Assembly: GCA_965263355.1 (NCBI GenBank)
Contig: CBDHHL010000032.1
Span: 1,312,001 to 1,376,000, forward strand
DNA: 64,000 nucleotides
Direction of reading: 5' to 3'
DNA from: Leptolyngbyaceae cyanobacterium
GTDB taxonomy: Bacteria; Cyanobacteriota; Cyanobacteriia; Phormidesmidales; Phormidesmidaceae
Part shown: positions 59,392 through 64,000 of the stretch, piece after piece
Layout of the letters: the number at the start of each line of letters is the position of its first letter
How positions within the stretch are numbered: position 1 is the first letter of the stretch
Notes under the pieces: model-generated
Databases searched by the model: none
Seen by the model: the letters and a program-made list of their open reading frames with translations, nothing else
Told to the model about the DNA's origin: nothing
Translations under genes and position numbers: made by a program

Positions 59392-59997
59392 TTACCAAAC
59401 TTGAGCCATAGGCAATGTAAAACCTGGTAGTTCTGGATCACCGCTAACAGCATCAGGATTTTCAAGTATCTGAGAAGCTTGATTAGGGCGATAAACATAA
59501 ACTGTATGATTCTTACGATCAATTAACCACCCCAGCGATACGCCATTATCCATATATTCCTGCATCTTGGTTTGCAGGCCAGTCAGAGTATCACTGGCCG
59601 ATCGTCGTTCAATGACAAAATCAGGCGAGATCGGGGCAAAGGATGCCTTTTCTTCTTCGGTCAAGGTATTCCAGCGTTCTAATTTAATCCAGGCTGCACC
59701 GGGTGAACGAGTTGCACCATTGGATAATGTAAACCCTGAGCTAGAGTCAAAACCTAACCCGGTAGCATCCTGTTGGGTCCATATCCAAAGAGAGGCGGCT
59801 AAATTAAAGTTACGGTTCCCAGTATCTGAAAATGCGGGTGGCATAATCACCACATCCCCTGTGGCTGTACGTTCAATGCATAAATCCCGATTGGCCTGAC
59901 AAAAGGCGTAAAATTCATCGCGGGTCATGGGAGCAGCCGTGGGTAGCGAAACGGTTAAGGGAGTTGTTTCCGTTTGGATGCGTAGGGTCGTTGTCAT
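59392..59997 (-). CDS. Uma2 family endonuclease with degenerate catalytic motifs
   Basis: FDSSSGF and LGWLID present; RSPG replaces RSPD and IERRS replaces VELRS relative to the paralog at 29377. Confidence 0.85.
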   Translation of the reverse strand: MTTTLRIQTETTPLTVSLPTAAPMTRDEFYAFCQANRDLCIERTATGDVVIMPPAFSDTGNRNFNLAASLWIWTQQDATGLGFDSSSGFTLSNGATRSPGAAWIKLERWNTLTEEEKASFAPISPDFVIERRSASDTLTGLQTKMQEYMDNGVSLGWLIDRKNHTVYVYRPNQASQILENPDAVSGDPELPGFTLPMAQVW

Positions 59998-60163
59998 TGC
60001 TATGGTCCCTTATGCCAAGCGATACCGTTGCTTAGATTCTAGCGTCTCCACAGGAGTGCCTTCAACACGAACAGCATAATGCTGATGCAGACGATTGGTA
60101 AAATAACTGGTTAGGGGCTAGCAGCCAAATAAAATACCAGCTTGAAAATATGCTTCAGACTTT

Positions 60164-60285
60164 CCTCACCTTAAGAAGGGGAGGTGCCGTAGGCGGAGGG
60201 GTTTTGACCGATAACGCTAACTGTCAATAACCCCCTGTAAGTCCCCCTAAGCCCTCTGGGCAGGCTTCGCCAACGTAAGGGGGAC
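60164..60285. repeat. Cyanobacterial small dispersed repeat cluster with a nested 25-bp insert
   Basis: ccttaagaagggg hairpin; gtccccc-taa-[25 bp]-taa-gggggac. Confidence 0.6.
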
Positions 60286-60420
60286 AGCAGATCTCAAACA
60301 TGTTTCAAAACGGTACATTATTTTCAGGCAGACGCCTTACAATACGATTTATCAAATATTGGTGTGCTAACCCCTACGAGATAATCTCCTTTAGGAGCAC
60401 TAACTACAACTGGTCGAACT

Positions 60421-61023
60421 GTGGATATTCAAATTCGTGAATCAACGTCTGACGATCTTGAGAAAATAATAGAATTACAGACTATTGCCCTAAAAACGTT
60501 ATCAGTCAGTTATAACGCGGCTCAGATTGCGTCTCTGATTCGCAGTCAAACCTCCTGGAGATATTCACAAGACGAGTTATCTGTCGTAGCAGAACAAAAC
60601 CGTCGTATTATCGGCGTTGCCTCTCTTCTTGTTCTACAAGAAAGGATCAGTGGCGTCTATGTTCATCCAGATTTTATGCGTCAGAACATAGGCTCTCAAC
60701 TGCTTAAGCATATAGAGGATATTGCCATTGAGAAAGAATGCAAAACCATTTATGTCACCTCATCATTAGACACCGTCGATTTTTATGAGGCTAATGATTA
60801 CAAAAGGATTCGTCCTTCAGGTTTTTATTCGGAACGACGAGTCTGGATACCGTGCATCAATTTAGAGAAACAACTGATTGATGCACCAAGATTTAAAAAA
60901 ATCTTGCAGTATATTGTTTCTCGACTAAGGCCAGTTTTGTTATTTATTGCAGTTACAGCTGTGGTAGCTTTCGTATTAATTACCGTACTCTATATATTCA
61001 GCGTGGTTTTCAATGTATTATAG
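60421..61023 (+). CDS. GNAT acetyltransferase with a C-terminal transmembrane helix
   Basis: VYVHPDFMRQNIGSQLL and FYEANDY motifs. Confidence 0.85.
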   Translation: MDIQIRESTSDDLEKIIELQTIALKTLSVSYNAAQIASLIRSQTSWRYSQDELSVVAEQNRRIIGVASLLVLQERISGVYVHPDFMRQNIGSQLLKHIEDIAIEKECKTIYVTSSLDTVDFYEANDYKRIRPSGFYSERRVWIPCINLEKQLIDAPRFKKILQYIVSRLRPVLLFIAVTAVVAFVLITVLYIFSVVFNVL

Positions 61024-61180
61024 ATAAACTCAGTATAAAAACGCTCTGATGGCTCAGGCCTTTTGGTTTTTATAACTTTTATAAGATTTTTGCGTCTAAA
61101 ATTTCGAATTTCTATGTTTAACCCCTGACCTATCAAGATAGACAGGCTATAGTAATGGCGAACTCTCCCATGCCCTATCA

Positions 61181-62281
61181 ATGCGTAAAGTTCTATTTCT
61201 TGCTTCTAATCCTAAGGATACGGGTCGTCTTCGATTAGACCAGGAACTGCGGGAAATTGATGAAGGGCTTAAACGAGCCAGTCGTCGGGATGACTTTCAA
61301 CTGGCTCAGCGGTTAGCTGTGCGCCCACGAGATTTTCAGCGGGCTATGCTAGATGAAACGCCACAGATTGTCCATTTTTCTGGCCATGGTGCAGGCGCAG
61401 ACGGTATTTGTGTGGAGGGGCCAACGGGTGAGGTTCAGTTAGTCACTGGTGAAGCTCTGGCAAATTTATTTGAGCTTTTTTCAGATAGTTTAGAGTGCGT
61501 GGTTTTGAATGGGTGTTATTCAGAACTACAGGCAGAAGAGATTAAGGCCCATGTTCCCTATGTGATTGGGATGAATCAGACGGTGGGAGATACGGCAGCC
61601 ATTGAGTTTGCTGTGGGGTTTTATGATGCCTTAGGTGCTGGGCAATCGGTTGAAAAGGCATTCAAATTTGGCTGTGTGGCGATGACCATGGCCGGTACTG
61701 GGGAGCAGCATAAGCCTATCTTACTCAAAGGTACTGCTATGGTTACAAAATCGACTCAAGCTGAAAGCAGTGCTTCTGGTCAAGTAAATTCAGTCGCTGA
61801 ATCGAAGCCAGAACCTGCGGTATCTATGAAAAAAGATGCTCTGGAAGTATTTTTCTCCTACGCCCATGAGGATGAAAAGTTGCGGGATAGGCTAGCCACG
61901 CATTTAAAACTATTGGAACGACAAAAGGTGATTTCGGCCTGGTATGACCGGGATATTACAGCTGGGGATGAGTGGAAAACAGAGCTTTTAGAGCAGTTGG
62001 AGCGGGCTGATATTATATTGTTGCTAATTAGCTCAGATTTTCTGGCTTCAGATTTTTGTTGGGGTGTGGAGCTAGAGCGGGCTATGAAACGACACACTGA
62101 AAAATCGACCTGTGTGATTCCGATTATTTTGCGGGATGTTGACTGGACAAGTGCACCTTTTGCCAAGTTGCAGGCGTTACCGAAAAATGCGGAGCCAGTA
62201 ACTAACTGGACAAACCAGGATCAGGCATTTACGGATATTGCTAAGGGCATTCGTAAAGTAGCTGAACGTCTAAAAAAGTAG
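61181..62281 (+). CDS. CHAT-domain plus TIR-domain protein
   Basis: HFSGHG and VVLNGC caspase-like dyad; TIR motifs VFFSYAHED...ISSDFLASDFC..VEL. Confidence 0.9.
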   Translation: MRKVLFLASNPKDTGRLRLDQELREIDEGLKRASRRDDFQLAQRLAVRPRDFQRAMLDETPQIVHFSGHGAGADGICVEGPTGEVQLVTGEALANLFELFSDSLECVVLNGCYSELQAEEIKAHVPYVIGMNQTVGDTAAIEFAVGFYDALGAGQSVEKAFKFGCVAMTMAGTGEQHKPILLKGTAMVTKSTQAESSASGQVNSVAESKPEPAVSMKKDALEVFFSYAHEDEKLRDRLATHLKLLERQKVISAWYDRDITAGDEWKTELLEQLERADIILLLISSDFLASDFCWGVELERAMKRHTEKSTCVIPIILRDVDWTSAPFAKLQALPKNAEPVTNWTNQDQAFTDIAKGIRKVAERLKK

Positions 62282-63151
62282 ATGCCCCAGAGACTAGAGA
62301 GGGTACTGAGACAGTGCCCATGGGGGAGTTGCTTAATGTGCCTACATTGCCGGATAACTTTTTATCTAGACCAGAGGACTTGGCGGCGCTGAAGCTGCAA
62401 ATATTGGGCCAATCGCAGCAGGCTGTTGCCGTAACGGGTAAAGCCGTTGGTGGTGGCAATGTCAGCATTCAGGGGATGGGAGGTATTGGCAAGTCGGTAT
62501 TGGCAACGGCACTGGTGCGAGATGAGGCGGTACGTTGTGCTTATCCGCATGGATTGTTTTGGGTTACGCCAATTATTGTTTGACTATAACTGGCTGCAGG
62601 CGCAGCTAAACGCTAATGGTATCAATGGCCTGCTGGCGGACTATGACTGGCTCACTGATGACAAGACTCTCAGACTGTTGCAGAGTACATTGCGATTGTC
62701 GGCTCATGTGTTGACTACGAAACCACAACAGCTTAACCAGAGGCTTTGGGGACACCTGAGAGATAGACAACAACCAGACGTTGACAGCTTGTTAAATCAG
62801 GGTGCTGCGCAACAACAGTCTATATGGCTGCGGCCCCAGAAAGTCAACCTGACAGCTCCTGATGGGCCAATGATCCGCACCCTGGAAGGTAGACAACAAC
62901 CAGACGTTGACATAGCTCCAGGGTCCAGGGTCAATTCAGTGGTGATGAGTGCTGATGGCAGCCTCGCCCTCTCCGGCTCTGACGACAATACGTTGAAGCT
63001 GTGGGGTCTGACCACAGGCAAGTGCTTAGCTACCTTCTGTAGCGATCATCCATTCTATTCCTGTGCCCTGTCTGCCGATGGTAGCACCATTGTTGCTGGC
63101 GATGCGGCAGGCACTGTGCATTTCTTTTCTGTTATTGAGCCTGGCAACTAA
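62278..63151 (+). pseudogene. Remnant of an NB-ARC / APAF1-like helical / WD40 STAND protein
   Basis: VP.LP.NF..R and GMGGIGKSVLA (Walker A) stop after FWVT; then LLFDY.WLQA...LRLSAHVL and about two WD40 repeats in another frame. Confidence 0.8.
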
Positions 63152-63728
63152 ACGTTTGTCATATTTGGTGTTTAGGTTAAGACCGAGTGAGGAAGAAATG
63201 AAGAAGAAAACAATAGCAGGGTAACAGCTAGGAATAGCCCAGTACGTTGGCTTATAGGACGGCGTTCCGGCCCTGCCCATAGGGAAACCCAATAAGCCTA
63301 AATTGCAAACCTTGTTGTTTCCAGAAAAGGAACTCGGAGGATTACCCCTACAAGATGATCTAATTTTGAATCAGGTTGAAGAAATTAGGATTTCACCTAG
63401 CACAAATCAAAATTTCACAAAAAGGACTGTAATCACAGATATTTTGGGCTTTAAACATAAAATCCACAATTATTGTGTCTTTATGTTAAGTGACCGTAGA
63501 ACTTGCCATAGATAGGTGTTCACATATCAATTCTATTTTTATTCTTAAGTGAAAAGCACAGGTGTTAAACATCGACCCATGAAGTACGTAAAAAGTTTCA
63601 TATACATTACGTAAAGACAGCGTGGTGAAAGCCTGGTTGCCAATAGTCTTTACAGTCTGCACTTAGGTCATTTCTTAAAGTCCTGAAATGCCCTCATCAA
63701 ACTTATATTACCTACCCAACTAATAAAT

Positions 63729-64000
63729 ATGCTGACGCTTACTTGTATCGATGATATGGCAAACAAACAGATATCGGTGGCGTTTCCCCATCGGGAAATA
63801 GCTGCTAAGGCTAAAACTGTTATTTTTGATTCACAGATTGAAGACCTAAACCTACTATTAGATGGTTTACATGGCAATGTTCAGGCCCATGTGCTTAACC
63901 AGGACCATGATGGTTTAGAGCAGATAACAACATTTCTGCAGCAAAATCCGAGCCAGGATTTAACCCTGATCGCCCACGGCTTCCCCGGTGGTATACGCCT
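63729..64000 (+). CDS. DUF4347-domain protein, N-terminal part (runs off the window)
   Basis: VIFDSQIEDL..LL.G...DGLEQI...LTLIAHG.PG; open to the window end. Confidence 0.7.
   Translation, partial: MLTLTCIDDMANKQISVAFPHREIAAKAKTVIFDSQIEDLNLLLDGLHGNVQAHVLNQDHDGLEQITTFLQQNPSQDLTLIAHGFPGGIR

Follow-up and report, generated by a model that had tools for sequence, protein, structure and literature searches.

Does an immune-type gene of a cyanobacterium give two proteins by means of a ribosomal frameshift? The question is raised by a locus in a stretch of 64,000 nucleotides from a Leptolyngbyaceae cyanobacterium (the whole stretch is called the window hereafter), where the ORF of a protein with a CHAT and a TIR domain stops right after a run of six A and a G. 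An earlier note on this DNA had proposed that a programmed -1 frameshift joins this effector to an NB-ARC/WD40 sensor, one locus thus making a free effector and a full-length NLR-like receptor. Programmed -1 frameshifting is strongly supported at the level of the family by motif, phase, a covarying stem and open -1 frames. We put at about 0.85 the probability that a programmed -1 frameshift cassette at effector 3' ends in cyanobacteria yields a free effector plus an effector-STAND fusion, and that the window holds a relic of it. As far as sequences can tell, such a cassette would combine A_AAA_AAG or a C_CCT tetramer as slippery motif with a stop at a distance of one or two codons and a stem of 9-11 bp about 5 nt downstream, and would sit at the 3' end of CHAT, TIR, CHAT-TIR, CHAT-bDLD3 and similar effector ORFs. 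The features of the locus are collected in Table 1.

Table 1. Features of the CHAT-TIR/sensor locus in the window
Feature	Position	Strand	Source
CHAT (caspase-like) and TIR ORF, 366 aa, intact	61181..62281	+	Pfam CHAT E 3e-8, TIR_2 E 3e-16
Slippery heptamer A_AAA_AAG, last two Lys codons	62272..62278	+	read from sequence
0-frame stop TAG, immediately 3' of the heptamer	62279..62281	+	read from sequence
-1 frame: linker and NB-ARC start with Walker A (62473-62496), premature stop	62278..62583	+	sequence and Pfam
3' structure: short outer stem 62285-89 with 62321-25 around hairpin 62301-62319	62284..62327	+	ViennaRNA MFE
Join point of 941-nt frame-breaking deletion, most of NB-ARC and winged-helix region gone	62564..62565	+	blastn against L002
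Sensor remnant in 0 frame: APAF1_C-like helix (E 0.037) and two WD40 repeats	62565..63151	+	Pfam
27-nt in-frame insert, repeats part of 62755-62786	62890..62923	+	absent from X1 and X3 contigs and from L046

The CHAT-TIR ORF would be the 'free effector' product of the 0 frame. It has the complete signature of a CHAT-TIR effector: the CHAT His motif (HFSGHG, residues 65-70), the CHAT Cys motif (LNGC, 109-112) and the TIR Glu297, which we take to be catalytic. These are kept in 93, 90 and 93 of 100 CHAT-TIR homologues, respectively, and the protein can be aligned to the SAVED-CHAT structure 8tl0 and to the TIR of Cat1 (9mud). The heptamer that had been claimed is in place, given that the ORF starting at 61181 ends CTA AAA AAG TAG with AAAAAAG in the X_XXY_YYZ phase expected of bacterial -1 frameshift sites. 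AAAAAAG occurs 26 times on both strands of the window, and the junction copy is the only one directly followed by a stop. In the accessible part of PMC4066793, A_AAA_AAG ranks among the most efficient shift heptamers of E. coli. The -1 frame is open as claimed: it extends over 62266-62580, overlapping the 0 frame at the motif, is entered at GTA 62278 and encodes GMGGIGKS. Pfam finds CHAT and TIR upstream and the start of NB-ARC in the -1 frame, which stops 101 codons past the shift point, giving a predicted product of 467 aa.

No intrinsic terminator was found at the junction on the + strand of 60900-63700, and Rfam gave no match at E 0.5 or better in 59900-64000. An upstream SD-like stimulator, the optional element of the dnaX and IS911 type, is absent from the window; a loose SD-like 4-mer match occurs upstream in 17 of 39 loci, a figure taken without a background rate for comparison. 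PADLOC returned domain-level matches only (the effector as a ThsB-like TIR plus chat, and a WD40 region in the sensor of the relative L002) and made no system-level assignment for the locus.

Contigs from four runs (X1, X3, X4 and X5) of three studies were aligned over 60900-63700. Those of X3 and of X1, possibly the source sample itself, cover the entire region, and an X4 contig over 62198-62397 has zero differences from the window. No indel at the A run of the junction was seen in the contigs from the three studies, and the 941-nt deletion point is spanned without gaps by contigs of all four runs. Since contigs across runs agree with the window at both sites, the junction and the deletion are both real in this lineage. 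A sequencing error at the A6 run is ruled out by these contigs and by the same junction in the relatives L002, L045 and L068. In the X3 contig, TIR codon 237 carries an additional base (61891), and of the five CHAT substitutions examined two alter the amino acid; these changes would fit relaxed selection on the locus.

The sensor half of the proposal fails in the window. An NB-ARC/WD40 sensor had been claimed downstream, and a full-length NLR-like receptor as the product; instead, the -1 frame ends at 62581-83 and the WD40 remnant lies in the 0 frame behind the frame-breaking 941-nt deletion. In a blastn alignment with L002 (Leptothoe spongobia), 62564 corresponds to position 2327 and 62565 to 3269 of that locus, so that NB-ARC is cut after Walker A. 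The window retains profile positions 20-56 of the 248 of NB-ARC, and its two WD40 repeats are out of frame, whereas L002 has a complete NB-ARC (positions 20-234) and 10 matched WD40 stretches in frame. The claim of a full-length receptor most likely held for the ancestor of the window locus. The present copy looks like a decaying relic of the cassette, in which slippage would lead only to the 467-aa stub, with nothing of the ATPase beyond Walker A. The 27-nt duplication in the remnant appears specific to this strain or assembly, because neither the X1 and X3 contigs nor L046 have it.

The intact form of the locus is seen in close relatives. The sequence CTA AAA AAG TAG is identical in L002, L045 and L068. 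L002, the closest homologue (70% amino acid identity), has the same junction followed by an intact NB-ARC/WD40 frame of 1102 codons in the -1 phase, and its domain order is effector, NB-ARC, APAF1_C, WD40. In-frame A7 fusions, which had been named as the sign of an accidental deletion, are missing among these three closest homologues, all of which keep A6G-TAG and the -1 phase. The conservation that had been proposed as a check is thus found for the A6G-stop and the phase; the stem predicted in the window shows no covariation in the clade. In L046, AAG has become TAG and a short WD40 tail follows, and L126 retains the motif, with sensor and stem lost. The window, L002 and L068 have an ATG at codon 14 of the -1 frame (62320 in the window), which is replaced by AGG in L045 and L046. 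The top protein matches of the NB-ARC part (P0121-P0130) are all annotated without an N-terminal effector. The loci L126, L214, L219 and L227 have effector genes with a slippery end whose -1 frame and stem have both been lost, a later stage of the decay visible in the window.

Two censuses place the junction in a wider family. On the sensor side, NB-ARC loci were drawn from 172 genomes of the family, 401 genomes of the class and one metagenome scan; after removal of 13 duplicates (L046 among them), 117 loci remained, and those with at least 150 open codons upstream were scored as fused. These loci are related by descent and the counts are therefore not independent: 77 are fused, 23 split in the -1 phase, 1 split in the +1 phase, 12 stand-alone and 4 truncated at a contig end. 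The sole +1 split has its own ATG. The motifs A_AAA_AAG, A_AAA_AAC or C_CCT occur within the last two codons in 19 of the 23 -1 splits, versus 2 of 366 other ORF ends; among the remaining splits, two have an A run further upstream, and L118 and L160 have no clear motif. In a quick tree of 68 of 116 rows, from which the window row was left out as too short, the labels A6G, C_CCT and A-run change 4, 3 and 3 times, with 2, 1 and 3 changes forced by well-supported branches. Among 1325 distinct long-frame ends, a set partly selected via NB-ARC, the 53 with a motif are divided 39:1 between long -1 and long +1 frames, as against 146:135 for the 1272 without. An ATG at least 25 codons before Walker A is found in 5 of 34 loci.

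The effector-side census was blind to the downstream gene. From 90 of the TIR matches, 81 ORF ends could be read; a long -1 frame follows in 20 of them and a long +1 frame in 3. Twelve ends are slippery, and 7 of these lead into a long -1 ATPase frame. Among the 13 non-slippery -1 ends, 10 are operons with a MoxR-type gene that, judged by eye, starts at a GTG or ATG within the overlap; they have no slippery motif and were used as a natural control for translational coupling. In these ten loci (L136, L138, L139, L147, L154, L169, L185, L189, L190 and L221) the TIR-containing ORF and the AAA gene of MoxR type behind it overlap in the -1 phase. Class-wide, 22 CHAT-TIR matches were obtained in 19 of 401 genomes, four of these genes being already known from earlier sampling in the same analysis. 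Fifteen of the 22 end in A_AAA_AAG plus TAG or TAA, with a -1 frame of at least 194 codons in 13 and a short one in 2; the other seven comprise one C_CCT end, one that runs off and five ordinary ends. The terminal Lys-Lys is coded xxA AAA AAG in 15 of 15 cases, against 2 of 83 internal pairs, and together with the 23:1 ratio of -1 to +1 splits this indicates that motif and phase are conserved beyond the constraint on the protein. A Lys-Lys C-terminus is found in 44 of 100 CHAT-TIR homologues of up to 430 aa in the protein database, versus 2 of 120 longer ones. The upstream partners are CHAT, TIR, CHAT-TIR and CHAT-bDLD3 (the latter in the upstream ORF of L052), and the -1 frames encode NB-ARC-WD40, NB-ARC-TPR and AAA_16/nSTAND1-like ATPases. 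Nine loci (L050-L054, L057, L061, L170 and L174) form a subgroup with a nine-A junction and weak stems, the exceptions being L061, with ten A and in frame, and L054, which is fused in frame. Outside the cyanobacteria, a planctomycete CHAT-TIR gene (L004:7187-7266) ends A_AAC_CCT CAG TAA, followed by a 13-bp stem and a 155-codon -1 frame; this frame has no Pfam family and no match in four other genomes searched, and L004 is a possible candidate for the cassette, to be taken as a lead only.

Both motif classes are followed by a covarying stem of 9-11 bp about 5 nt downstream. Of the 28 loci whose -1 frame is open, 18 have a helix of at least 5 G-C pairs that begins 4-8 nt past the motif (18 of 21 when A runs are set aside); at background ends the rate is 38 of 425. 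The window, L002 and L068 are the three loci without A runs in which this helix is missing. Where there is a motif and no long -1 frame, the helix is missing in four of the five loci examined, the fifth lying at a contig end, and L233 retains the stem although its -1 frame is short. For the A6G class, covariation was assessed in a set (A4) of 14 hand-picked loci, chosen without the window's clade and without stem-poor loci. Here the 9 pairs of the stem are 89.7% paired and 6 of the 9 show two-sided changes; 19 two-sided cells were counted versus 8.0 in shuffles (reached in 0 of 500), while the number of two-sided pairs alone was equalled by 75 of 500 shuffles. In the C_CCT stem, 3 of 10 pairs covary (10 loci). 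An RNA model (R1) built from the same 14 loci was searched in 151 genomes and gave 8 matches below E 1e-5, of which 6 are training loci and 2 are new, both at TIR ends with -1 ATPase frames of about 300 codons. Among ten weak matches (E 8e-4 to 0.0096), none of the six examined sits at an effector end.

The window itself fits this picture in part. Its best match to R1 within the 64 kb is the junction, with a weak score (18 bits, E 0.014). The stem that had been described has the bases given for it and coincides with the ViennaRNA fold (MFE -18.4 kcal/mol; z from -1.87 to -2.53 for 49-62 nt and -0.74 for 102 nt), yet it does not behave as a conserved stimulator: none of its 15 predicted pairs shows a two-sided change among the four clade members. 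The 3' structure at the expected distance (about 5-9 nt downstream) is the covarying stem in the family, and in the window a short outer stem with z of about -2. A role of the window stem as a conserved stimulator is not supported, the covarying stem of the family being degenerate there, and the window structure may be a weak or rearranged form of that stem. Taken together, the slippery motif, its phase, the stem covariation, the lack of a conserved start codon and the open -1 frames into STAND ATPases can all be read from the sequences of the family.

Three other explanations have to be weighed. The two ORFs could form an ordinary operon with translational coupling, in which the linker holds the start codon (ATG, GTG or TTG) of a separate STAND gene and the -1 phase reflects the usual bias of overlaps. 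This we regard as improbable. Separate initiation is possible in the window's clade because of the ATG 14 codons into the -1 frame, databases annotate STAND proteins from such linker starts, the ten TIR-MoxR-type operons show that genuine GTG or ATG starts do occur in -1 overlaps, and caspase-bDLD3 plus AP-ATPase loci are interpreted as operons in the accessible part of PMC8195603. However, the linker ATG is AGG in L045 and L046, an ATG at least 25 codons before Walker A is absent in 29 of 34 loci, and the MoxR-type control operons lack a slippery motif. Coupling also leaves unexplained the fixed coding of the terminal Lys-Lys and a covarying stem at constant spacing. A second explanation, that a fused gene fell into two halves through an old accidental loss of one base, or only seems to have done so owing to a sequencing error, and was then inherited neutrally, is very improbable in our judgement. 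The prevalence of in-frame fusions (77 of 117), the decayed sensor of the window and the presence of both states in the A-run subgroup (L061, A10, in frame) would fit it, but not the occurrence of two motifs with several ATPase families and a 39 to 1 excess of -1 over +1 at the 53 motif-bearing ends, nor -1 frames open over hundreds of codons, the stem covariation and the junction sequence that contigs of three studies share with the window. As regards the A6G and C_CCT classes, this explanation is largely refuted; it may still apply to A9 runs.

Transcriptional slippage or DNA phase variation in the A run could also restore the frame in place of the ribosome. Seven nine-A loci with weak or no stem (L050-L053, L057, L170 and L174) and their ten-A relative L061 speak for such a process, and since L061 is in frame, the A9 subgroup may use polymerase slippage or phase variation instead. 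As an account of the cassette as a whole this is hardly credible, however, because the run in the window has six A only, the C_CCT class has no A run, and a stem at ribosome spacing would be superfluous. Polymerase slippage needs no downstream RNA stem at that distance.

Programmed frameshifting by the ribosome thus remains the preferred reading, and a mechanism can be outlined. Ribosomes would stall at the stem; most would terminate and release the free CHAT-TIR effector, and a minority would slip by -1 and continue into an effector-STAND(-sensor) fusion. Speculatively, the rarer fusion could oligomerise on sensing into a nucleating platform, apoptosome-style, and recruit excess free effector through homotypic CHAT, TIR or death-like contacts; alternatively, the free effector could have a dampening role. 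One gene might then do the work of a two-gene effector-associated-domain (EAD) system. We lean slightly towards the broader proposal that the motif, stop and conserved stem form a portable recoding module at TIR/CHAT C-termini, joined to many STAND families, which would fix the ratio of free effector to receptor, so that one gene supplies both the platform and excess effector. A counterpoint to the cassette is that a free effector is evidently not required, given that 77 of the 117 related NB-ARC loci are fused in frame.

The cassette resembles the signals of dnaX, IS3/IS911, copA and csoS2, which likewise use in-phase motifs (X_XXZ_ZZN A_AAA_AAG or Z_ZZN C_CCU; accessible parts of PMC4066793 and PMC5009743). 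They also have a 3' stem a few bases on and give two products with a common N-terminus. The short product of the cassette comes from the 0 frame and the long one needs the slip, opposite to dnaX, copA and csoS2. A long product made by the slip is the polarity known from insertion sequences. The cassette genes are, moreover, immune-type and chromosomal, and the window differs from the dnaX/IS911 type in lacking the upstream stimulator. According to the portion of PMC4066793 available, C_CCU is one of six shift-prone tetramers in E. coli, shifting weakly on its own and at 0.26-5.6% with a pseudoknot.

Cyanobacterial Apaf-1-like AP-ATPases (NB-ARC-WD40 STANDs) carry N-terminal caspase-like or TIR effectors (accessible part of PMC13581612), and the L. 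spongobia locus has the same order of effector, NB-ARC, APAF1_C and WD40. The proteins described in that part of the paper are single polypeptides with no frameshift mentioned, and in the window the sensor is broken. Two-component conflict systems with EAD or bDLD3 domains share with the cassette an effector-bearing protein adjoining an AP-ATPase gene, and homotypic recruitment has been proposed for EAD systems (PMC7159879, PMC8195603 for both, the latter for recruitment; accessible parts). The two papers interpret such pairs as operons and never use the word 'frameshift' in their accessible main texts, while here one frame switch would yield both components. No report of frameshifting in TIR/CHAT-STAND genes was found in the openly accessible literature searched, and no such case in the main text of PMC3711429 (GeneTack clusters), the accessible part of PMC7159879, bioRxiv 10.1101/2025.10.02.679949 or the first 300,000 of the 449,034 characters of PMC5009743.

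Plant TIR-NLR genes such as tobacco N and RPS4 make truncated forms by splicing, so that each locus yields both the complete receptor and a shorter form that carries the effector. The likeness is one between eukaryotic splicing and a bacterial ribosomal slip, and no common origin is implied. To our knowledge, bacterial -1 frameshift genes that are not mobile are few (dnaX, copA, csoS2 and chlD). If the cassette is real, an NLR/Apaf-1-like gene family would add immunity to this list, and many split TIR/CHAT plus STAND loci would be re-annotated as single genes. If the module is indeed portable, many cyanobacterial loci now annotated as a 'TIR-only' or 'CHAT-TIR' gene with a headless STAND gene as neighbour would each amount to one recoded immune gene, and the same might apply to planctomycetes (L004). 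The cassette would offer a direct handle on the dosing of a bacterial apoptosome-like receptor against its effector, and the C_CCT class would contribute a collection of natural sites with a motif whose shifting in E. coli is weak. The window copy is a poor test object for such work; L. spongobia and other intact loci are better suited.

Some observations concern the surroundings of the locus. Upstream (59392-61023) lie a Uma2 endonuclease-like gene and a GNAT acetyltransferase gene, with no link to the junction seen. The element at 63229-63340 is a repeat with no Rfam match: similar copies turn up on numerous further contigs of the runs named above, and in L. spongobia one lies immediately before the CHAT-TIR gene; it may be a miniature mobile element. 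The whole CHAT-TIR/sensor locus is flanked by imperfect inverted repeats (72% and 88%) at 61110-61134, 63438-63462 and 63559-63575, which may be due to chance or may be old recombination sites.
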